From the sequence record MN158212.1: a stretch of 44,592 nucleotides of DNA. One strand, 5' to 3'. Below the pieces are notes generated by a model. It was not told the origin of the DNA. It made no database searches and saw only the letters and a program-made list of their open reading frames with translations. How positions within the stretch are numbered: the stretch's first letter is position 1; every line of letters begins with the position of its first letter. Of this stretch, positions 2,824 through 40,688 are shown one piece after another. Origin of the DNA: Escherichia phage BEK1-1. The translations under genes were made by a program, and so were the position numbers.

Positions 2824-2927
2824 TTATTGCTGATGGTGCATTGGTATAGCTGCCGTGCAATACTGTATAAATCCACATGATACTAAAATTATAACCGGAA
2901 CACTCCAGAACAGTAGTTACATGATAT

Positions 2928-2985
2928 ACACAGTAATATATATAATAATAATAATAATATTAAAAGGTTGATATATATAGATATT
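2928..2985. repeat. AT-rich element copy 1: ACACAGTA-(ATA)n-TAAAAGGTTGATATATATAGATATT
   Basis: Near-identical copy at about 29732..29797 with a different number of ATA units; core TATCAACCTTTTA (minus strand) fits the IHF consensus WATCAANNNNTTR. Confidence 0.7.
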
Positions 2986-3104
2986 TTAATGTAACTATTG
3001 CGTAAATTGGCGTAACAGAGCGTATATCATTTTTCGCGGATGGGATTGCATACATCGAGTTACATCGGTTACGTGTAACTGTGATTTGTGGTGAAATTGG
3101 CGAT

Positions 3105-3222: not shown

Positions 3223-3870
3223 ATGAACATTGAAGTGTGCAAAGAACAATCAAAAACCATGATGAGCACAAAGGAAATCGCAGAGTTAACCGGCAAACGT
3301 CATGATCACGTCGTTCGCGACACAAAGGAAATGATCAATGAATTGTTACATTATAACGATGCCCCAGATTTGGGTCATGATGATTATCAACTACTTACAG
3401 ACAATCGAGGCTATACATCTGAGATTTTACTCAACAAGGAACTAACCGAAACGCTAATCACTGGCTACAGTGTCGTACTTCGCCACAAAGTAATCCGCAG
3501 GCTTCATGAACTTGAGGCTTTAGTTAAAAAACAAGCGGAAGTAATCAGCCAGATGGTAAGCATTGATGAGCTTAAAGAGGTTCGAATGATGCTTGGTGTG
3601 GCTAATGCGCAGAATGCACACCTGAGCCAGCGCATTGTTGCAGAGCAAAGAATAAATGAGATCTTACTCATGGATAAGAGTACCGATGAAAAACTAGACA
3701 TGCTGGCTTGTGAGGCTCGCCAGTGTTGGGTTAGTCGATCTGATGAGATGGAGGAAAGATTTAAGTATGAAGCCCAATGCTTCGCCCTTAAAGAAAAGAA
3801 TGATGCGCTGACCGGATTGATTGAGAATAATCTCGGCATTGACATCAAGCTGCTGCTGGAAAAGAAATAG
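3223..3870 (+). CDS. Rha-family phage regulatory protein (antirepressor-like)
   Basis: N-terminal ...STKEIAELTGKRHDHVVRDTKEM... resembles the Rha signature; C-terminal half coiled-coil-like; RBS GGAGAG. Confidence 0.5.
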   Translation: MNIEVCKEQSKTMMSTKEIAELTGKRHDHVVRDTKEMINELLHYNDAPDLGHDDYQLLTDNRGYTSEILLNKELTETLITGYSVVLRHKVIRRLHELEALVKKQAEVISQMVSIDELKEVRMMLGVANAQNAHLSQRIVAEQRINEILLMDKSTDEKLDMLACEARQCWVSRSDEMEERFKYEAQCFALKEKNDALTGLIENNLGIDIKLLLEKK

Positions 3871-3910
3871 CACTAATTGCTAAACACTGATCGCAAGGAT
3901 GCGATACTAT
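3865..3910 (+). promoter_or_regulatory. box promoter (AAATAGCACTAATTGCTAAA, 20 nt, TACTAT, leader ACTCCATCGAAACGAAA) upstream of cor
   Basis: Direct reading; the box overlaps the stop codon TAG of the preceding gene. Confidence 0.55.
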
Positions 3911-3945
3911 TACTCCATCGAAACGAAATTACTAAGGAATACAAA

Positions 3946-4176
3946 ATGAATAACTTCATCAAATCAGCAATCATCGCAGCAGCAGTAATCATGGCAGTTG
4001 GTTGTTCTTCTGGTCCTCGTCCTGATGGTTGGTGTGCAACGTCCTCAAACGGGGTGTGCGTAGCTAAGTGGAAAGGCGGTGTAGTTGTTCCTGCTGGTGA
4101 AATTGACATTCGATACGATGGAATTAAAGGCTCCAGTGGCTCCGTTCGTGATTATGGCTCTAAGGAGTGGAATTAA
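3946..4176 (+). CDS. cor: Cor-like superinfection-exclusion outer-membrane lipoprotein
   Basis: Internal ATG of track ORF 3877..4176; [22 protein letters not shown] = signal peptide plus lipobox; about 76 aa; position next to the tail-tip genes as in T1/phi80-type phages. Confidence 0.65.
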
Positions 4177-11092: not shown

Positions 11093-14074
11093 TTAGTTAA
11101 ATCCGCGCAGGTAAGCATAAGCACGGCCGCCTTGCTGGAAGGACTGAGCAATCTCTTCCGCTACGATAGCCTTGACGCCGCTCTGCAACGCTTTGGCTTG
11201 CTCTGGGTCGCTACCCACCCCTGAGTTTACGTTAACAGTAATGCCGCTAACATTAACATCAGTTCCACCAGAAACCAAACCTCCATTTGCATAACCAGAA
11301 GGACCACCAACAACACCGCCATTCGCATAACCCTTCATCAGCGCGTATAGGTTCTTAACACCAATTCGGCTTGTCGCTTCTTTTGTGAATACAAACTCGC
11401 CACGGTGTACCGTTCCTGCTGGTTGGTATTTCCCACCATTGCCGGTGTAACCACCATTAGCAAATCCACCACCAACCGCGGATGCGATAGAACCAATAGC
11501 GCCGCCAGTGCCTCCGAAGCTACTCAAGCTAGACTCGATAGCCTTGACAACAAGAAGCTGGGTTGCAATCTTTGCTATCTGCTTCAGGATGCTAACAGTA
11601 AACTCCCTGAAGTTTGTTTCTCCAGTCGTTACAAGGTTGGTAATCTGGTCGGTAATACCTTCGAAGACTGTTGTGGTTAAACTTCCAGCTATTGAAAATG
11701 CATCCGTCGCACTCTCAGCCCAATTGGTAAAGGATTGATTCACGCCAGCAAGCCAGTTTTCACGTAGCGCATCTTCCTGAGCATAAAAGTTACGTCTTGC
11801 CTCCAGTAGTTGCGTGAAATCAACGTCATCAAGTGCTCCTCCAGCATTAACCTGATTGGACTGAAGAGCTTGAATCTCTCTTGCCCTCTGCTGCTCACGA
11901 GAAGACAGGCCAGCCCCCAAATTAATATTGCTTGCCTCATTGTTAATCTGAAGAATCTTCTTGCGGTTATCTTCAGCTAACTTATTAGCTCGCTCCTGCA
12001 AAACAACCTGGTCACCTAGTTCAGCCTTCTGCCTTGCGAGTGCAAGAACTTTATCCTTTTCAATGAGAAGCCTTGCTTGCTCTTTGGTGATTGAGCCATC
12101 AAGTTGCCTCTGCTCAAGAATCCTGAACTTAGCCTCCTCCTGAAGGTACTGCTTGCGCTCATTACTTATTACTGCTCCAATATCCCTGTTTTCCTGAAGT
12201 ACCTTTAGTTGAGCCTGAAGTGCCAGCACGCCAGATTCGTAACAAATTGTAAGGTCTCTTTGCTCTTTAGCCCTACCATTTTCTTCTTTCCTACTCTTCT
12301 TGATCGCATCAAGTTCATCCTGAAGCGCCTTCTTCCTTTTTGCAAACTCCTCATCAGCACCTGACTGCTCATTGGAATTCTGATTTTCCCTGCGTGTAAC
12401 GTAACCAAGTTCTCCTTCTCTGATTCTGGCATCTCTCTCCCTGATAGACTTCTCTAGCTCAAGGTTTTGCTTCTTGGCGGCATCGATAATCTTCTGCTGA
12501 CTCTTGATTACATCATCACCGACACCATCAAGGCCTGGGATATTCTGCAATGCCTGAGTTGCACTAATTACAAACTCACCAATCAGCGCGTCACCTTGGT
12601 TAATGAAGACCTTAATCTGTTCAATTGTCCCGGCTATTACATCAACAAACAGGTTTAGCGCCCCAACCGTTCTGCGACTAATTGCATCCCATACATCAGA
12701 TATGTACTTCCTGAAGTCATTCCAGGCCAATTCAAGAGGAGTAAGCTGGGCTGCAATATCGTTAAGGTTTGCTTCCTGTGATTTGCTAAATATATCAATA
12801 GCAGCAGTTACGGCTTCAACCTCACCCCTAGTCTCTCTCAATCTTTCAATTGTTGTTAACTGCCCCTGTGTAAGGAAGTTAAACCTCTTGTCTAAATCAG
12901 CAAGTCCTTGAATTGGGTCGCTCGCAATCTGGTTATAGTAACCAGTAATTTCCTTTGCATCCTTACCTGTCAACTGCGCCCATCTGGCGGTAGATTTAGT
13001 AATCTTGTCAATCTGCGTCAGCGTAAGGTTCCCTTGCTCAATAAGGCTTGTTGCGATGCTAGTCACAAGTCCTCTGGTTGCACCAGTAGCATCAGAAACA
13101 GAGCTAACCAACTCTCTAACCTGCGAGATTGATGCGATTGTGGAGTTGTTTGAGAACGCAATGGCAGAATTTAATGCTCTGAATTCACTCTCTGCCTGGG
13201 CAGCACCGATACCTAGAGCAACAAGCGCGCCACCCAAAACCCCAACAGCAACATTGAATGGATTTAAGGCTGCAAGCGCGAATCTAAAGGTGTTACCAAT
13301 ACCTCCAAATGCATCCTTAATTTGTCCGCCTTGCTGAATTGCAATAAGCCAAATCGGAATGCCGCCAGCAAGTGATGTCCCAATATCTGTAATCTGCGCT
13401 GGCAATTGAGAGATTGCAGCCTTGTATTGACCTGCGCTTAATCCTGATTTCTGAAAAGCCTTACTCTGAGCAATTAGCTGGGTGTTTGCCTTCTGTGATG
13501 CATCGGCGATTCTGTCAATGATGGGTGCAGCCTGGGAGCTAACTCCAAGCTGGGCCGCTTGTAACTTTAGGTACTCCTCTCTCGTCAATGTCGCCGCCTG
13601 AGCCTGACGCTCAAGTGATGCGATAAATCTATCCGCTTCAGCCTTTGCTTTTGCTTTATCCTTTGCAGCCTGTGCTGCCGATCTCCCCTCTTCAGTTAGC
13701 GCCGCACGTGAACGAGCAAGTTTTGCGTTCTGCGTTTCAAGGGCTTCACCTAAGCGGAAAAACTCCTCATCAGGAACTAATCCAGCCGCGAAAGCCTTAT
13801 CAAGACCTACAGCAGCCTCTTGCAGCTTTCGGAACTTTGCCGCAGTTGGATCAATAGCTGTTTGCAATTTAGCTAAAGATGCTTGCTGTTCAGCCAGTGC
13901 GCGAGCGGTATCTCTAGCCTGGTTTTTAGCTACCTGTTCAGCGTTGACGAACTCACTAATACCGGAAGCAGCCTGCTGGTTTGCCTGTCTGAACTTTTGT
14001 AGGGATTGCGTTCCCCTGTCTACCTGCGAGACGTCTACGGCTAGTGTGATTCCGGCTAATTCATTTGTTGCCAT
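11093..14074 (-). CDS. tail tape measure protein
   Basis: 993 aa; long Ala/Gln/Glu/Lys-rich coiled-coil regions; Gly-rich C-terminus; follows the G/GT chaperone. Confidence 0.85.
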   Translation of the reverse strand: MATNELAGITLAVDVSQVDRGTQSLQKFRQANQQAASGISEFVNAEQVAKNQARDTARALAEQQASLAKLQTAIDPTAAKFRKLQEAAVGLDKAFAAGLVPDEEFFRLGEALETQNAKLARSRAALTEEGRSAAQAAKDKAKAKAEADRFIASLERQAQAATLTREEYLKLQAAQLGVSSQAAPIIDRIADASQKANTQLIAQSKAFQKSGLSAGQYKAAISQLPAQITDIGTSLAGGIPIWLIAIQQGGQIKDAFGGIGNTFRFALAALNPFNVAVGVLGGALVALGIGAAQAESEFRALNSAIAFSNNSTIASISQVRELVSSVSDATGATRGLVTSIATSLIEQGNLTLTQIDKITKSTARWAQLTGKDAKEITGYYNQIASDPIQGLADLDKRFNFLTQGQLTTIERLRETRGEVEAVTAAIDIFSKSQEANLNDIAAQLTPLELAWNDFRKYISDVWDAISRRTVGALNLFVDVIAGTIEQIKVFINQGDALIGEFVISATQALQNIPGLDGVGDDVIKSQQKIIDAAKKQNLELEKSIRERDARIREGELGYVTRRENQNSNEQSGADEEFAKRKKALQDELDAIKKSRKEENGRAKEQRDLTICYESGVLALQAQLKVLQENRDIGAVISNERKQYLQEEAKFRILEQRQLDGSITKEQARLLIEKDKVLALARQKAELGDQVVLQERANKLAEDNRKKILQINNEASNINLGAGLSSREQQRAREIQALQSNQVNAGGALDDVDFTQLLEARRNFYAQEDALRENWLAGVNQSFTNWAESATDAFSIAGSLTTTVFEGITDQITNLVTTGETNFREFTVSILKQIAKIATQLLVVKAIESSLSSFGGTGGAIGSIASAVGGGFANGGYTGNGGKYQPAGTVHRGEFVFTKEATSRIGVKNLYALMKGYANGGVVGGPSGYANGGLVSGGTDVNVSGITVNVNSGVGSDPEQAKALQSGVKAIVAEEIAQSFQQGGRAYAYLRGFN

Positions 14075-14089
14075 CTAAGCCTCCATAAT

Positions 14090-14120
14090 AGAAAACCCGC
14101 CGAAGCGGGTTATTTTTTTC
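14090..14120. terminator. hairpin plus T-run between the chaperone genes and tape measure
   Basis: ACCCGC-CGAA-GCGGGT followed by TTATTTTTTTC on the plus strand; weaker T-run on the minus strand. Confidence 0.45.
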
Positions 14121-14439
14121 TCAGGTTGTCCATCATCTCTAGAGCCTTAGCTTCAAGGATGCGTAAATCGCTGAGCACCAATTCTTCTTCAGAAACATTA
14201 TACACTCTAAAGAGGAAATTTAGCACGTTGTAATCAAGTCCTGTAGCTCCGTTAGCTCCTACTCGCCACTGTGTAGCCATTGAACAATAAATGTCCCACG
14301 CCTTCATCATGTTTTCGTCGAAGTGTAAAACTTCAGGCTCTTCATCTTCGTAATCAGAGCGGCGCATCCCAATAGCTTCCAGTTCGGCATCAGTTGGATC
14401 TGACTGGTACTGTAGATACACCGCTCGTTTTAGTTTTTT
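14110..14439 (-). CDS. -1 frameshift extension giving a G-T-like fusion chaperone
   Basis: The -1 frame is open from the slippery site A_AAA_AAC (about 14433..14439) to the stop at 14110; it matches track ORF 14110..14421. Confidence 0.5.
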   Translation of the reverse strand, partial: KKLKRAVYLQYQSDPTDAELEAIGMRRSDYEDEEPEVLHFDENMMKAWDIYCSMATQWRVGANGATGLDYNVLNFLFRVYNVSEEELVLSDLRILEAKALEMMDNLRKK

Positions 14440-14744
14440 ACTCGCTGACCAGCAAGCGCTTGCATATAAGCGGTAGTCAGTGCAACGGTTGACGCTGGGA
14501 ACAGGTCGCAGAACTCATTAACGTTATCCTCGTTGTATTCTTCTTCCAAATCCCAATCAGAGGCGATTGCCATAATCAATTCTTTAGTGCTCAAGTCTTC
14601 TTTCTGCAAAAGCTCCTGAAGCTCAGATGTTTTCTTATGCTTGACTGTAAAGATAACCTCTACATCCTGGTCGTTAGCCAGCTTGAATTTTACAGGCAAC
14701 TTAAAGTCAGGGAGTGCTGCCAGTGAAAGTTTGAACTTAGCCAT
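14430..14744 (-). CDS. tail assembly chaperone (lambda gpG-like)
   Basis: 104 aa, acidic; directly upstream of tape measure; ends ...GTA AAA AAC TAA with slippery heptamer A AAA AAC. Confidence 0.6.
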   Translation of the reverse strand: MAKFKLSLAALPDFKLPVKFKLANDQDVEVIFTVKHKKTSELQELLQKEDLSTKELIMAIASDWDLEEEYNEDNVNEFCDLFPASTVALTTAYMQALAGQRVKN

Positions 14745-14783
14745 CTTAGTTAATCCTCTTATTGTTTGTGAGTATGTATTCTA

Positions 14784-15032
14784 TTACTTAGTGTTTTCTT
14801 TTGCAATCTTAGCAGCCGAGTCCTTACAAACCTCTTTGCCGTATTTCATGATTTGGTCAACTTTGCCACCTACAAGTTCCTGACATGCTCGCTCAGCCTT
14901 AGCAAATTCAACAGTATATTTGTTTGCCTTGCTATTGGCATCAGCCTCGCCAGTTGGGTTAACAATCTGAACTACCGCATAAAAAGCAACCAGAACCGCA
15001 GTAAGTTTGATGATGTTTTTAACGTTATTCAT
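14784..15032 (-). CDS. small secreted or membrane-anchored protein (82 aa), moron candidate
   Basis: N-terminal hydrophobic segment MNNVKNIIKLTAVLVAFYAVVQIV; has its own box promoter; sits between major tail and chaperone genes. Confidence 0.45.
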   Translation of the reverse strand: MNNVKNIIKLTAVLVAFYAVVQIVNPTGEADANSKANKYTVEFAKAERACQELVGGKVDQIMKYGKEVCKDSAAKIAKENTK

Positions 15033-15065
15033 TTCTTTAGTCTCTCATTTCGTTTCGATGAGTTA

Positions 15066-15111
15066 ACTATACAGCAAAACTGAATAAGTGCTTTATCAAA
15101 AAGTGCTATGC
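15066..15111 (-). promoter_or_regulatory. box promoter (variant box, 20 nt, TATAGT, leader AACTCATCGAAACGAAA) upstream of the 82-aa gene
   Basis: Direct reading of the reverse complement. Confidence 0.5.
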
Positions 15112-15131
15112 AATAAAAAACCCTCCGAAGA
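15105..15131 (-). terminator. intrinsic terminator after the major tail protein gene
   Basis: Minus strand AAACCCTC-TTCGG-AGGGTTT followed by TTTTTATTGC. Confidence 0.7.
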
Positions 15132-15142
15132 GGGTTTGTGTT

Positions 15143-15799
15143 TTAAACTTCGGCCGCCACAGAAGACAGGCGACCACGAATTGATACTGCGATGGATACC
15201 GTTTCGATTTCGTTAACACCAATGGTAGGGGTGTCATTGAAAGCGATAGTACCGGACTGCAAACGCATTTCCTGAGCGCGAGGTACGAACAGACGAATTG
15301 CAACAACCTGGCCAGACTCATCGTACTTACGCAGAACCGGATAGACCGGGTTGGTGTACTCGTGAGCAAAGGTGAAGGTGTTTGTTACCGCAGATTTATA
15401 AGTCGGAATCTGCTGCTCGCGGTCATCGGACAAACACTGGAAGTTAACGAACTGCTGCTCACCGCCGTCAGTAGATACGTCCTGAACGCACGGAACTTCG
15501 AACCAGGAAGTAATCTTGACAACTTCACCAGTTAAACCAGTAGGGAACTTAGTGGTGTCGGAGGTATCAATACCTTCAACTGTTACCGAAGTGCCAGAAA
15601 CTTCAGTTACTCTCACCTGCTTGTCGCTAAGTAGGGTTGAGGTGGAGGCGGTAAACAGAAGGTAGTCACCCTTAGCCAGGTCAGATGCGCTAGATACGGT
15701 TAAAACTGGTTTATCTTTGTTAGAGATTGCAGTTACGGTAATTGGAGCTCCGCGAGTTCCTTCTACGAAGACCTGCGTGCCATTTGATAAATGAGCCAT
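15143..15799 (-). CDS. major tail protein (gpV-like)
   Basis: 218 aa, Thr/Ser/Val-rich; position before the chaperones; followed by a strong terminator. Confidence 0.65.
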   Translation of the reverse strand: MAHLSNGTQVFVEGTRGAPITVTAISNKDKPVLTVSSASDLAKGDYLLFTASTSTLLSDKQVRVTEVSGTSVTVEGIDTSDTTKFPTGLTGEVVKITSWFEVPCVQDVSTDGGEQQFVNFQCLSDDREQQIPTYKSAVTNTFTFAHEYTNPVYPVLRKYDESGQVVAIRLFVPRAQEMRLQSGTIAFNDTPTIGVNEIETVSIAVSIRGRLSSVAAEV

Positions 15800-15814: not shown

Positions 15815-16216
15815 TTAGTCTAGACGAACATAAAAATGAACAGGGATAAACCACCCAGACTTGGATTTGATAACCGGGTTAACAACTCCAGACTCGTAAA
15901 TGGTCCCACTGTCAAGCATTGTACCATCAACGATAGATTCTGCCAATTGATTAGCGATTTGTCTGGGCTTATCAATGCCAGTACCTGGACTGAAGAAGAC
16001 AGAAACCTGCACCATCCCTACATAGTATTTGCACTTCCTGCTCAGCCCGTATGTTACGGTGTCAACCTCGATGTAGTCATACTTTAGCCAGATAGAGCCA
16101 TCTGCTGGAGGAGTGAAAGCAACGTTTTCCCAGGATACTGGATATCTGACTGGGAAGATGCTCACCAGCAAATCATTAACATATTTCCTGGCAGCTATAG
16201 ACAATTCATAGTGCAC
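15815..16216 (-). CDS. tail terminator / tail completion protein (gpU-like, tentative)
   Basis: 133 aa; position immediately upstream of the major tail gene. Confidence 0.4.
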   Translation of the reverse strand: MHYELSIAARKYVNDLLVSIFPVRYPVSWENVAFTPPADGSIWLKYDYIEVDTVTYGLSRKCKYYVGMVQVSVFFSPGTGIDKPRQIANQLAESIVDGTMLDSGTIYESGVVNPVIKSKSGWFIPVHFYVRLD

Positions 16217-17417: not shown

Positions 17418-17458
17418 ATTAGCTCCATACAATAAAGGACGCCGAAGCGCCCTGTTTG

Positions 17459-17766: not shown

Positions 17767-17793
17767 GTAAAAAAAAGCCCTCCGAAGAGGGCC
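17767..17793 (-). terminator. intrinsic terminator after the major capsid gene
   Basis: Minus strand GCCCTC-TTCG-GAGGGC followed by TTTTTTTT. Confidence 0.75.
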
Positions 17794-17798
17794 ATTTA

Positions 17799-18743
17799 TT
17801 AGATTAAGGTAATACCTTTGATTACGGCCATCGTCAGAGGGCGATAAACGATCAAACCTGTAGCTTTTGATGTTACAGGGTACTTAAAGTGCAAGTCCTT
17901 AGGTTGTCCTGGAAGAACGTTGGTAGCTTCCGGAATCTCGATAGACATATTGAGTGGACTCTTCTCAAACGCCAGAGCAGCCTTACCACCTGCGCCATCG
18001 TAGTTGTCCAGGAACTGCAAGAAACGAATGGTCAAACCTGGGTTATTACGAGTGAACAGTTCACCGTAGCTCAAATTTGTCTGCGGAACCAGTTGCTGCA
18101 TAATTCGACGAGCAGAGGCCGGAAGCAGAATGTCAGTCACATGATGGAGGCCCTGTGTTGAAGTCTCAACTGCGTCAATCATCGCGGTGATATCATCAAT
18201 TGCGTTGTCCGGAATATTCCAACTTGGAGTTGCAACAACGTTGTTGATGTTCGGCTGGTCGAATACGCTCACGATGCCGTGCGGGGCGGAACCAGACCAC
18301 ACCAGTTTATCCAGCAGGTTGTCGTGCGCTTCGAAAGCCAGGGCTTGCTTGCGAGTCGACAGGGACTGACCAGTTGCGGCGCCAGCTTTAATTTCATCAA
18401 TAGAAATCAGGAATGCGTTACCGAAACGGAACACTTTGCCTTGTTTCTCGTTCATAAACGCATCAACCAGCGGCAAGTCGTCAGAGTAATCAGCGATAAT
18501 CTGAGCAATGCCAGCACCATCAAATTCTGGGTATTCGAAATACTTCGCGTGACCAGGAATTTCATTTGTTACAGGGAAGATATTAACAACTGAGTTTTCT
18601 GCGTATTCTTTTTCGTAAGCACGGTTCAGAGCAGCGGTAAGCTGGCTAACGGTCCAGATACCAGCGGCATCAGCTTTTTCTACGCCCATTTGCTCGAGGT
18701 GAGCAGTGATTTTTGCTTGTTCTGCGTCAAATTTAATGGCCAT
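17799..18743 (-). CDS. major capsid protein
   Basis: 314 aa; position after scaffold and decoration-like genes; flanked by terminators and a TATAAT-containing promoter. Confidence 0.65.
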   Translation of the reverse strand: MAIKFDAEQAKITAHLEQMGVEKADAAGIWTVSQLTAALNRAYEKEYAENSVVNIFPVTNEIPGHAKYFEYPEFDGAGIAQIIADYSDDLPLVDAFMNEKQGKVFRFGNAFLISIDEIKAGAATGQSLSTRKQALAFEAHDNLLDKLVWSGSAPHGIVSVFDQPNINNVVATPSWNIPDNAIDDITAMIDAVETSTQGLHHVTDILLPASARRIMQQLVPQTNLSYGELFTRNNPGLTIRFLQFLDNYDGAGGKAALAFEKSPLNMSIEIPEATNVLPGQPKDLHFKYPVTSKATGLIVYRPLTMAVIKGITLI

Positions 18744-18759
18744 TCTTTATTGTTCCTTT

Positions 18760-18800
18760 TCAGTTATGTGTCTACGGATTCATTATACACGAGTTTTTAA
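18760..18800 (-). promoter_or_regulatory. sigma70-like promoter (TTGCGT, 16 nt, TATAAT) in front of the capsid gene
   Basis: Reverse complement reads TTGCGTGGGTTAAAAACTCGTGTATAATG. Confidence 0.45.
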
Positions 18801-18813
18801 CCCACGCAATGGT

Positions 18814-18840
18814 GTAAAAAAACCTCCCGAAGGAGGCTTT
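18814..18840 (-). terminator. intrinsic terminator upstream of the capsid promoter
   Basis: Minus strand CCTCC-TTCG-GGAGG followed by TTTTTTT. Confidence 0.65.
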
Positions 18841-18854
18841 ATATATCTTAATTG

Positions 18855-19349
18855 TTAAGCTGCAGCAGTTGATTTTGCGGATTGAGTAAGCTGAACTTCA
18901 ACTAGTGCGCCATCAACGCTAAGGTCTTGCGGGTGTGTGCCAGTGTTTTTGATGTAACCACCCGCAAAAGTCCATCCAGTGTCAATCGTGCCTGAATCTT
19001 CAACCAATCCAGTGGTAGAAACTTTAACTGGTTGGCCAAACGTTGGTGCAGAAGTAAGTTTTGAGCGAACCCAGATTCTACCGTGAGTCATTACGTTAAC
19101 CGCTTCATTTACGCGAGCAGTTCCATCCGGGGTCTCATAATGAGAGCGAACAACCACACCGAGAGCATTACCCGCAGTGAGGCCGGTCGCTTCCACAAGC
19201 TTGTGGCCATCTACAGACTGAGCGGTTGTGAATTTAACAACAGTGCCAGCAGGAATTGGTGCTGCACCGCCAACCACACAAGCACCGTCGATGTTATAGA
19301 GCGAAGTATCAGAAATCATACCAGCCAGTGCTACGGAACGAATTGCCAT
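18855..19349 (-). CDS. head decoration-like protein (tentative)
   Basis: 164 aa, Gly/Thr/Val-rich; lies between scaffold and capsid genes, as lambda D does. Confidence 0.35.
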   Translation of the reverse strand: MAIRSVALAGMISDTSLYNIDGACVVGGAAPIPAGTVVKFTTAQSVDGHKLVEATGLTAGNALGVVVRSHYETPDGTARVNEAVNVMTHGRIWVRSKLTSAPTFGQPVKVSTTGLVEDSGTIDTGWTFAGGYIKNTGTHPQDLSVDGALVEVQLTQSAKSTAAA

Positions 19350-26699: not shown

Positions 26700-26755
26700 C
26701 GATGGGGTAACTATAACAAATTACCCCAATACAGTTTTAGCAATTCGTGCTATTT
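26700..26755 (-). promoter_or_regulatory. box promoter (AAATAGCACGAATTGCTAAA, 20 nt, TATAGT, leader ACCCCATCGAAACGA)
   Basis: Direct reading of the reverse complement. Confidence 0.55.
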
Positions 26756-29452: not shown

Positions 29453-29731
29453 GTTGATACCTCGTTTCGTTTACTTCGTTTCAGTGATTGCCATCTTGCC
29501 ACTTGTTTACGTGTCGGTCAACGTATTTTTATGTCTATTTCATCGCGGATACGTTTTTCGGCCTCCAAGTTAGCGTCAGCACTGGTTGTAAACGTGCCGT
29601 ATCCCCTGTGTACAGTTTTGTAGGGTACTTTCCTATATATGTGCCTTTTTATTCCTACAATGTCATCCCATTCTGACAAGTGTCAGAATATCTGCACGGA
29701 ACATATCAACTATTGCCTCCGTGAGCGGTAT

Positions 29732-29797
29732 ACACAGTATACATATATATAATAATAATAATAATAATAAAGTAAAAGGTTGATATATATAGATATT
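29732..29797. repeat. AT-rich element copy 2: ACACAGTA-(ATA)n-TAAAAGGTTGATATATATAGATATT
   Basis: Near-identical to 2928..2985, with a longer ATA run. Confidence 0.7.
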
Positions 29798-29983
29798 ATA
29801 TTGTATATCGTGTGTATATCTCGCGTAAAAACGTAGGTTAGTGGTCACTAACTTTTGTGACGACACTGAGTATACGGAGGATACGCGTATATCGATGAGA
29901 ACCTTACCGATTGGTAAAAAATCAACTTGTATGGTAGTCCATCCATCTTTCATTCACTCACTCACCACTTTATTTTACTTTTC

Positions 29984-30584: not shown

Positions 30585-30745
30585 TGCTGCTGCCATCTGA
30601 GATAAATTATTTCGATCTTGAAGTCATAAGCGCATACAGCTGGAAGGGTTGGCCTTGCGGGGACTGGTTTCGCGAAGACTTACTTGAGAGTCATGAAATT
30701 ATGCTCAAGGCCATAGAAAAAGCACGAAATAGCACTAATTGCTAA
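30584..30745 (+). CDS. hypothetical protein (53 aa)
   Basis: ATG overlaps the upstream stop (TGATG); 3' end AAT AGC ACT AAT TGC TAA coincides with the box. Confidence 0.35.
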   Translation: MLLPSEINYFDLEVISAYSWKGWPCGDWFREDLLESHEIMLKAIEKARNSTNC

Positions 30746-30772
30746 ACACTGATCGCAAGGATGCGGTATTAT
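30727..30772 (+). promoter_or_regulatory. box promoter (AAATAGCACTAATTGCTAAA, 20 nt, TATTAT)
   Basis: Box and spacer nearly identical to the cor promoter (CACTGATCGCAAGGATGCG). Confidence 0.5.
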
Positions 30773-30798
30773 CTTTACATCAAAACGGGAGATAAGAA

Positions 30799-37662: not shown

Positions 37663-37696
37663 TCTTTAAAATCGTCTTTAGCAATTCGTGCTATTT
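37651..37696 (-). promoter_or_regulatory. box promoter (AAATAGCACGAATTGCTAAA, 20 nt, TATAGT, leader ACTCCATCGAAACGAAA)
   Basis: Direct reading of the reverse complement. Confidence 0.55.
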
Positions 37697-40202: not shown

Positions 40203-40688
40203 ATGAATGCAGTCGACAAGCGAACCATTAACGGTAATAACGGAACCATCCGCACTGAAGACAAAAAGCAACGGAAACGACCTTCAGGTTACTACGTTTT
40301 GAAAGATGAGGTAAGGGCGGGTTTACGTGCGCGGCTGGAAATTGTTCTTGATTTCTTCGGCACAAAGGCAAATATGGCAAAGCAATTAAAGGTAACACCA
40401 CAGGCTGTAGAGGAATGGTTTAAGCGCGGCATGATTTCTGCGCGCGGGGCTCAACTCTCACACAACTACTACAAGCGAACCGGGGAAGGCTTTCGCGCCA
40501 CATTCTGCCGACCAGATCTGCAATTCGACGGCAACGGCAAGCCTCTTACTCTACGTTGCAAAAAGCGTCACATGCTGCGTGTTGTTACTGAGGCTGAATT
40601 AGCCACCAAGCCAGAGTGTCGATCATGGCGCAAGATTAAGGAAGAGAATCGCAAAAAGCGAGAAGCAGAGAAAAATAGCACGAATTGA
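40203..40688 (+). CDS. putative HTH DNA-binding regulator (161 aa)
   Basis: ...FGTKANMAKQLKVTPQAVEEWFKRGMIS... resembles a Cro/CI-type helix-turn-helix; basic N- and C-termini. Confidence 0.45.
   Translation: MNAVDKRTINGNNGTIRTEDKKQRKRPSGYYVLKDEVRAGLRARLEIVLDFFGTKANMAKQLKVTPQAVEEWFKRGMISARGAQLSHNYYKRTGEGFRATFCRPDLQFDGNGKPLTLRCKKRHMLRVVTEAELATKPECRSWRKIKEENRKKREAEKNSTN

Follow-up and report, generated by a model that had tools for sequence, protein, structure and literature searches.

A cassette-borne gene for a predicted exported protein in the tail operon of the virulent Escherichia phage BEK1-1

Results

Escherichia phage BEK1-1 (sequence record MN158212.1) carries, within the genes that encode its tail, a small open reading frame of 82 codons (ORF82; 14784..15032 on the minus strand, stop codon included). 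The window analyzed here, 44,592 nucleotides, is the whole genome of this virulent phage, a member of the subfamily Braunvirinae in the Drexlerviridae, a family of phages that are virulent and T1-like by description. Proteins of phage Rtp mapped onto the window by tblastn reveal a complete, collinear T1/Rtp-like genome, and over the 2.3 kb around ORF82 the identity is 94% with Escherichia phage vB_EcoS_FP and 93.6% with Veterinaerplatzvirus isolates (Drexlerviridae, Braunvirinae). The minus strand reads major capsid gene, connectors, tail terminator gene (15815..16216), major tail or tail-tube protein gene (15143..15799; PF08813, E 1e-68), ORF82, the genes for tail assembly chaperones G (14430..14744; PF08748, E 5e-34) and T (14110..14421; DUF1799) and, 3' of these and on the same strand, the tape measure gene (11093..14074). 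A sequence-only reading of positions 14784 to 15111 had placed an 82-residue frame of this sequence between the major tail and chaperone genes and had judged that it has no place in the canonical tail gene order; the frame lies where it was said to lie, and the corresponding slot is empty in T1, Rogue1, SU57 and others. ORF82 has a G+C content of 40.6% (38.6% at third codon positions) against 44.4% for the genome and 43-49% for its neighbors, a small gap over 249 nt.

The slot begins with an intrinsic terminator after the major tail gene (15115..15137, minus strand; AAACCCTC-TTCG-GAGGGTTT plus a U-tract), which has an 8-bp stem (15137..15118), a TTCG loop and a U-tract that runs to 15115 (-11.5 kcal/mol, z -3.7). 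It is followed on the same strand by a box (15092..15108) with the near-palindromic sequence TAGCAC-TTTTT-GATA(AA), in which the palindrome TAGCAC-N5-TGATA spans 15108..15094, by a -10 hexamer, TATAGT (15066..15071), that lies exactly 22 nt downstream of the box and is accompanied by no -35 element, and by a predicted 5' untranslated region (15033..15059) that opens with ATCGAAACGA (15059..15050) and contains the Shine-Dalgarno sequence GAGAG (15046..15042). In an alignment of 12 phages the terminator is invariant, the box is conserved, the 17-nt spacer is variable, and CTGTATAGTT and the leader are conserved to the ATG whichever cargo follows. The leader before ORF82 is identical right up to the ATG to that before rtp34, the gene that occupies the slot in Rtp. 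This footprint supports the existence of a functional promoter and of a fixed "socket" for cargo exchange. The claims that ORF82 has its own, box-type promoter and a conserved leader are thus upheld at the level of prediction. The strong terminator that had been placed at 15105..15131 is also present, although its coordinates are off by a few bases.

The box is a genome-wide element. With at most one mismatch allowed, the window has 15 copies of TAGCA-N5-TGCTAAA where 0.38 would be expected, a number reached by 0 of 100 shuffles. Every copy faces a gene that lies downstream of it. Most copies have a TATAGT-like -10 exactly 22 nt on, and many of these also have the ATCGAAACGA start next and point at a gene 19-36 nt downstream. 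We rejected the idea that the box is a -35 element because its spacing to the -10 is constant at 22 nt. Its center, about -42 from the predicted start, lies where class II activators bind and suggests recognition by a dimeric activator. The first candidate for the factor that binds it is a conserved helix-turn-helix regulator encoded at 40203..40628, a homologue of rtp52 and T1 gp23. The copy upstream of ORF82 belongs to the only complete box promoter inside the 19-kb structural gene block; the others stand ahead of small genes of the early class, genes for recombination and replication, the lysis cassette, and a pair of genes for an exclusion lipoprotein and the receptor-binding protein. The promoter module of ORF82 is of the same type as the one that drives an experimentally established exclusion lipoprotein gene. 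Box promoters are unannotated in the T1 and Rtp records, no match to their sequence strings turned up in the literature that could be searched, and we found nothing relevant in the literature on Drexlerviridae transcriptomics and Braunvirinae virion proteomes.

This architecture is family-wide, with 15 copies in Rtp (L009) and 21 in T1 (L036) that have the same 22-nt geometry and no -35 element. Further sites in the window lie at 3868-3884 on the plus strand and at 26736-26752 and 37677-37693 on the minus strand, with the consensus TAGCAC-N5-TGCTA(AA), and T1 has one more box just upstream of its major capsid gene, at 15085 on the minus strand. In the Tunavirinae the same box is inverted, with an extended -10 (TGTAAAAT or TGTAGAAT) on one side and the start codon of the chaperone gene on the other (T1, about 18830-18850; BrunoManser, L006, 1440-1475), which would be an operator-like position, unlike the -42 position in Braunvirinae.

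A terminator scan found no terminator after ORF82: the 39-nt spacer to G is unstructured (-1 kcal/mol, z 0.1), and the unit is therefore expected to read through G and T. ORF82 thus appears to head the chaperone transcription unit and not to form a self-contained moron. Just ahead of the tape measure gene lies a hairpin (AACCCGC-TTCG-GCGGGTT, 14094..14111, minus strand, -11.8 kcal/mol) that is followed by a weak U-tract and is likely a partial end of the ORF82-G-T unit. Hairpins of this kind, GC-rich with a TTCG/CGAA tetraloop, punctuate the structural operon at 14094-14111, 15118-15137, 17430-17450, 17771-17795 and 18816-18840, and stand after single genes (major tail, chaperone T and the capsid region).

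Comparison with phages that lack a cargo indicates how the gene came to lie here. In SU57, itself a member of the Braunvirinae, the slot holds only the terminator, the extended -10 TGcTATAAT, the leader and the chaperone ATG. In SU57 and Rogue1 alike the leader between the extended -10 and the chaperone ATG reads CTCA(C/A)AAACAA...GAGGATTA, and this leader is kept in the window. Directly after the ORF82 stop codon stands a degenerate -10, TAGAAT (14783..14778), with TTGCAA 17 nt upstream, inside the frame; together they form a residual sigma-70-like chaperone promoter (TTGCAA-17-TAGAAT, 14778..14806, minus strand) that overlaps the 3' end of ORF82. It matches the extended -10 of the empty-slot phages, and the record of CEB_EC3a has a promoter annotated at this site. 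Judged from this alignment, a cassette of box, -10, leader and frame (about 15110..14784) is inserted between the major-tail terminator and the -10 of the old chaperone promoter, an event that is placed by the same comparison in one lineage of virulent T1-like (Braunvirinae) phages. The span singled out by the sequence-only reading, 14784 to 15111, coincides almost exactly with this cassette when set against SU57.

The same reading had proposed checking related genomes for the gene, and this comparison proved the most informative: the slot is polymorphic. It is empty, with 72-113 nt only, in T1, Rogue1, JohannLBurckhardt, BrunoManser, KPN N141, SU57 and six relatives from IMG/VR, and ORF82 is absent from every non-Braunvirinae phage sampled. 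In Rtp, MM01, AugustePiccard and RobRod40 the slot holds the gene for an unrelated 128-residue lipoprotein, rtp34 (MKAIIAIMATLLLAGC...). TR1 carries a 31%-identical lipoprotein allele of rtp34, and metagenomic contig L038 (1848-2243) a 50%-identical one in which the lipobox LLAGC has become VLAAIGHN while the hydrophobic N-terminus is kept, so membrane attachment in this family appears to shift between lipoprotein and signal peptide or anchor. Members of the rtp34 family have 126-131 residues, usually with a lipobox (LLAGC, LTGC), form a lineage-restricted ORFan and show no homology to ORF82 (BLASTP E 0.1). In TR3 (L014, 1505-1645) and CY1 (L005) the extra 46-residue frame, MILIGMLTAFFYYATGLTFWVSLGAAIGTYFVSAVLALIVIALRNR, lies between the box-promoter leader and an ORF82 allele; its product is largely hydrophobic, with two stretches recognizable by eye, and matches phrog_16572 (E 1e-4). 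All cargoes seen are thus predicted to be hydrophobic or exported, that is, envelope-directed. A search of IMG/VR yielded no new slot states. Divergence also extends to the alleles of ORF82 itself, some of which differ strongly although their surroundings are 91-99% identical; the ACG-M12 allele, for instance, has 48% identity to that of the window, compared with 95% for G and 99% for T.

ORF82 is under purifying selection (ratio of nonsynonymous to synonymous substitution rates, dN/dS, 0.04-0.32 against eight relatives, with many synonymous changes). It occurs in 81 phage records, in allele groups with about 95%, 83%, 57% and 50% identity to the window allele, and across alleles down to 45% identity, 16 of the 53 columns of the mature region are invariant, both cysteines included. 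Its sole match in PHROGs is phrog_22925 (E 3e-55), a family without functional annotation. A word-indexed (k-mer) search of 5.8 billion proteins gave 39 matches, all of them 82-residue phage proteins or their fragments, and when 1.84 billion cluster representatives were searched exhaustively with a profile, only its own cluster and one spurious match to the hydrophobic stretch came up. There is no Pfam family at E up to 1, no meaningful NCBIfam or PADLOC match, and no match in a profile search of the PDB. By these comparisons ORF82 is a real gene and an ORFan confined to one phage subfamily, and any reading of its function therefore has to be drawn from its context. Some database entries for near-identical phages or proteins name Campylobacter jejuni, Pseudomonas syringae and Nitratidesulfovibrio liaohensis, probably because of contamination with coliphage or a wrong host assignment.

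The same data bear on the idea that the product has no function and that the frame is only a translated leader or spacer that tunes chaperone expression. Such a role would fit the lack of a terminator before the chaperone genes and the replacement of the simple promoter of the empty-slot phages. The low dN/dS values and the invariant mature columns with both cysteines are not what it predicts, however, and the alternative cargoes of the slot are bona fide exported proteins; we consider this explanation hardly credible.

Residues 1-32 of the predicted protein (codons at 14937..15032, minus strand) have the make-up of a Sec-type signal peptide or signal anchor, MNNVKNIIK / LTAVLVAFYAVVQIV / NPTGEADA. 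The hydrophobic core, L10 to V24, consists of 15 uninterrupted residues (Kyte-Doolittle mean 2.39), is preceded by K5 and K9, and is followed by N25-P26 and A30-D31-A32|N33. This agrees with the pattern for signal peptidase I, in which a basic n-region, an h-region of about 10-15 residues and a helix breaker precede a site with small side chains at -3 and -1. On inspection of the aligned alleles, the -1 residue is alanine in all but one (ADT|N), and the -3 residue is A, S, T or V, with E in ACG-M12. The N-terminus fits a Sec signal peptide of 32 residues, although a long one, and a retained anchor is judged equally possible; the positive-inside rule predicts a topology with the N-terminus in and the C-terminus out. 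In the deep alleles these 32 residues are 78-81% identical, compared with 44-46% for the remainder. When dN/dS was computed separately for the signal and mature parts, the 5' part of the gene proved to have lower synonymous divergence too, which suggests an intragenic recombination boundary and leaves the split values indecisive between cleavage and anchoring.

The mature domain (codons 33-82, 14787..14936, minus strand; 50 residues, 5.5 kDa, pI 9.2) is basic, lysine-rich and amphipathic, with 11 K+R against 7 D+E, and contains C50 and C69, which are invariant in 18-19 homologues. AlphaFold2 predicts a helical hairpin for residues 30-82, with a mean predicted local distance difference test (pLDDT) score of 87 and a turn at G54-G55; the full-length model is poor (pLDDT 64, one long helix) and was set aside. 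On inspection the invariant residues recur with the helical period and so line one side of each helix. Compared by Foldseek with BFVD and the PDB, the hairpin model had no match with E below 2.6, a result that would be uninformative anyway for a two-helix model. The N-terminal hydrophobic signal or anchor and the two cysteines of the mature part noted in the sequence-only reading are therefore both found, with a basic N-terminus, a 15-residue core and an A-x-A site in the first and full conservation of the second. Taken with the evidence from the slot, these features make it very likely that ORF82 is a real, accessory gene that was inserted as a cassette and has a conserved promoter and export signals.

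The position of ORF82 in the tail module, directly upstream of the chaperones and with no terminator between, raises the possibility that its product is a membrane-associated factor that aids in assembling the tail or the tape measure, or else a minor protein of the virion or of ejection that fits a given tape measure type. An association between cargo and tape measure gives this some substance. The tape measures of the window and of Rtp are 76-77% identical at both ends and unrelated over residues about 300-585, and there are two unrelated types of central domain within the Braunvirinae (residues about 334-584 in the window, 12323-13075, minus strand; 18454-18978 in Rtp). The Rtp-type center is found in all six carriers of the rtp34 family examined (Rtp, MM01, AugustePiccard, RobRod40, TR1 and L038), and the window-type center in every ORF82 carrier examined; at 60% identity or more, the window-type center occurs in 82 records, compared with the 81 ORF82 carriers plus SU57. 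TR1 and TR3, whose G and T chaperones are 99% and 96% identical, differ in both cargo and tape measure center, a pattern to be expected of a factor matched to the tape measure. We regard this association as a lead, not as mechanistic evidence. Against a part in assembly stands SU57, whose tape measure is 92-99% identical to that of the window over residues 1-700 and 71-98% beyond, whose chaperones are highly similar, and whose slot is empty; ORF82 is therefore not needed to build the tail. Moreover, the gene is absent from every other Drexlerviridae subfamily sampled, its product is predicted to be exported away from the cytoplasm, the site of tail assembly, and the lipoprotein cargo of Rtp cannot be a cytoplasmic factor. 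An assembly or virion role is in our view improbable.

The sequence-only reading had likened ORF82 to Cor, on the strength of a gene in the same genome that also begins MNN and also has a box promoter. That gene (3946..4176) does start MNN and shares the box promoter and leader type of ORF82, but it encodes an LptD-blocking lipoprotein of the Rtp45 family, 84% identical to Rtp45. Cryo-electron microscopy has shown that Rtp45 binds LptDE from the periplasm and prevents attachment of the receptor-binding protein (bioRxiv 10.1101/2025.07.07.663478), and the genes of receptor-blocking lipoproteins stand next to that of the receptor-binding protein and vary together with it (PMC8594841). As a small exported protein with the same kind of promoter, leader and MNN start, ORF82 could in principle mask the outer-membrane receptor of the phage in the same manner. 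It has no lipobox, however, with no cysteine before residue 50 and no L-x-x-C; scans of PHROGs and Pfam at E up to 1 gave no match to Cor (phrog_1119); and it has nothing in common with the Rtp45 homologue of the window beyond MNN. Nor is it a neighbor of the J/receptor-binding locus, from which it lies about 10 kb away. We also rejected the idea that ORF82 varies together with the receptor-binding protein: DTL, IME542 and EC3a keep ORF82 at 95% identity or more, although the identity of their receptor-binding proteins to that of the window is only 40-45%, and the receptor-binding protein of Rtp is 79% identical to that of the window, yet Rtp carries rtp34 instead of ORF82. Near-identical alleles span IME253, a reported FepA user, and LptD-type phages. 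Given its lack of similarity to these lipoproteins, its distance from the receptor-binding locus and its independence of the receptor-binding allele, receptor masking by ORF82 is unlikely. With a dedicated Rtp45-type protein already encoded by the phage, we hold a Cor-like role to be very improbable, and the proposed analogy with Cor is not supported in its specific sense.

Discussion

ORF82 belongs to a known kind of gene, those that have been added to phage tail operons and encode small proteins of the envelope. In the definition of Juhala and Hendrix, as given in PMC3594210, a moron is an extra gene with its own promoter and terminator, deviant composition and expression from the prophage. 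The description of ORF82 as a moron is thus right in that an extra gene stands at a position empty in relatives, and fails in that the gene has no terminator of its own; the phage is virulent, so that expression from a prophage probably does not apply. Our comparisons indicate that ORF82 is a departure from the classical moron in these two respects and in its constant socket with swappable cargo. Among the closest functional precedents is HK97 gp15, a moron in a tail operon whose product, a small YebO-like inner-membrane protein of superinfection exclusion, blocks injection. The two are unrelated in sequence (ORF82 has no Pfam match at E up to 1, and YebO is thus not matched), the slot of gp15 lies between chaperone and tape measure whereas that of ORF82 lies before the chaperones, and HK97 is temperate and expresses gp15 from the prophage with its own promoter and terminator. 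Rtp45, T5 Llp and Cor are, like ORF82, small exported proteins of virulent or temperate siphophages; they are lipoproteins encoded beside the receptor-binding protein and co-varying with it, and ORF82 is neither. The rtp34 family shares with ORF82 the slot behind the same terminator, box, -10 and leader, and its products are also exported, whereas its sequence is unrelated, it usually has a lipobox and it accompanies another tape measure central domain. TP-J34 Ltp is exported, blocks DNA injection and is escaped by mutations in the tape measure (PMC10883804), and parallels the rtp34 lipoprotein cargo; it differs in its Gram-positive host and helix-turn-helix-repeat fold and has no homology to ORF82.

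T4 Spackle and Imm are small, early-expressed proteins of a virulent phage. Spackle, whose signal peptide is cleaved, consists of a small periplasmic domain that is all helical, and it blocks envelope penetration by the incoming tail. ORF82 matches neither in sequence or fold (no match in the PDB profile search, and none by Foldseek below E = 7), and T4 has a contractile tail with the gp5 lysozyme whereas BEK1-1 is a siphophage.

How ORF82 acts is a matter for a tentative proposal. We favor a model in which it excludes superinfection after adsorption, as a periplasmic or inner-membrane-tethered helical hairpin. The model draws on the accessory nature of the gene, its exported product, the envelope-type alternative cargoes, independence of the receptor, a position at the head of the chaperone/tape measure unit and a promoter that is not of the structural class. 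We envision that host RNA polymerase, with a dimeric activator bound to the box at about -42, would start near 15059 from a -10 without a -35, and that the transcript would span ORF82 and then the chaperone genes. The protein would be inserted into the inner membrane by Sec in an N-in/C-out orientation and either be cleaved after A32 or stay anchored, so that a basic helical hairpin of 50 residues with two conserved cysteines would be displayed in the periplasm. There it would act on the envelope of the infected cell, outside the virion and dispensable for tail assembly, and could interfere with the delivery of DNA across the envelope by incoming siphophages, for which the tape measure provides the conduit. 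Such a block would resemble those set up by HK97 gp15, TP-J34 Ltp, or T4 Imm and Spackle, and would complement the one imposed at the receptor by the separate Rtp45-type lipoprotein. There is precedent for this in siphophages, whose tail operons or their vicinity can encode small envelope proteins that stop DNA injection in a manner dependent on the tape measure, and in the mutations that escape gp15 and Ltp, which map to tail or tape measure genes (PMC3594210, PMC10883804).

Several observations weigh against this proposal. ORF82 has no homologue of known function. Its N-terminal segment is better kept than the mature part, a pattern seldom seen in signal peptides that are cleaved. In the register that we derive from the helix boundaries of the model, C50 and C69 do not appear to lie opposite one another. 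The expected disulfide within the molecule thus finds no support, and the cysteines may instead link two chains into a dimer or have another role. Box promoters also drive recombination, replication and lysis genes, and sharing one with an exclusion lipoprotein therefore says little. Finally, very few independent events underlie the association with the tape measure, with essentially a single pair of recombinants that is informative, and it may be only linkage or shared ancestry. Co-variation at the level of alleles was rejected: in ACG-M12, ORF82 is about 50% identical and the tape measure center 94-99% identical.

A different view is that ORF82 is an exported accessory factor with an envelope role other than exclusion. 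Possible roles include an antiholin-like sensor of lysis timing resembling T4 RI, an inhibitor of a host periplasmic or outer-membrane defense or protease, or protection from colicins or from lysis from without. T4 RI itself consists of an N-terminal signal-anchor and a small periplasmic domain. The export features and accessory status of ORF82 are the same on this view, a lysine-rich, basic and amphipathic mature domain would suit it, and so would the lack of co-variation with the receptor-binding protein and, at the allele level, with the tape measure. The occurrence of divergent alleles in near-identical neighborhoods suggests an arms race with a partner in the host or in a competitor. On the other hand, the lysis cassette lies 19 kb away and has its own box promoter, scans of Pfam, PHROGs and NCBIfam/PADLOC revealed no similarity to RI, other lysis regulators or known defense and anti-defense families, and no specific target is indicated. 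We place these roles behind exclusion after adsorption and think them rather unlikely, though clearly less so than receptor masking or a part in assembly.

We put forward a broader idea as speculation and ourselves consider it unlikely: the expression socket (terminator, box at -42, -10, leader and ATG) with its swappable cargoes could constitute, in virulent phages, a second, receptor-independent layer of self-exclusion, each cargo matched to the center of the phage's own tape measure. Were this true, the cargoes would allow the passage of a siphophage tape measure through the Gram-negative periplasm and inner membrane to be probed directly. The step from receptor binding to DNA entry is poorly understood in E. 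coli siphophages, with HK97 gp15 and Ltp as the main genetic handles, and ORF82 may offer a further one in a well-populated and easily handled phage group. The BASEL collection includes JulesPiccard, with ORF82, and AugustePiccard, with rtp34; SU57, with its empty slot, lies outside it. Cross-exclusion among T1-like phages would affect phage cocktails and fermentation contaminants. Should the protein have another envelope role, ORF82 would still be a compact, lineage-specific ORFan under selection (phrog_22925).

Other features of the genome

Three further features lie away from the tail operon. An anti-repressor-like frame of 215 codons (3223-3870, plus strand; phrog_8235, E 4e-84) is present in this virulent phage, has its own box promoter (3108) and lies where no Rtp protein maps. 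An AT-rich element, TATACACAGTA...ATAATAATAATAA...TAAAAGGTTGATATATATAGATAT, occurs in two copies 26.8 kb apart, at 2918-3007 and 29722-29819, both in regions of divergent transcription, and one of them matches the position of the Rtp genome ends. Lastly, a pair of promoter regions, 3864-3925 and 30726-30787, are 89% identical to each other.

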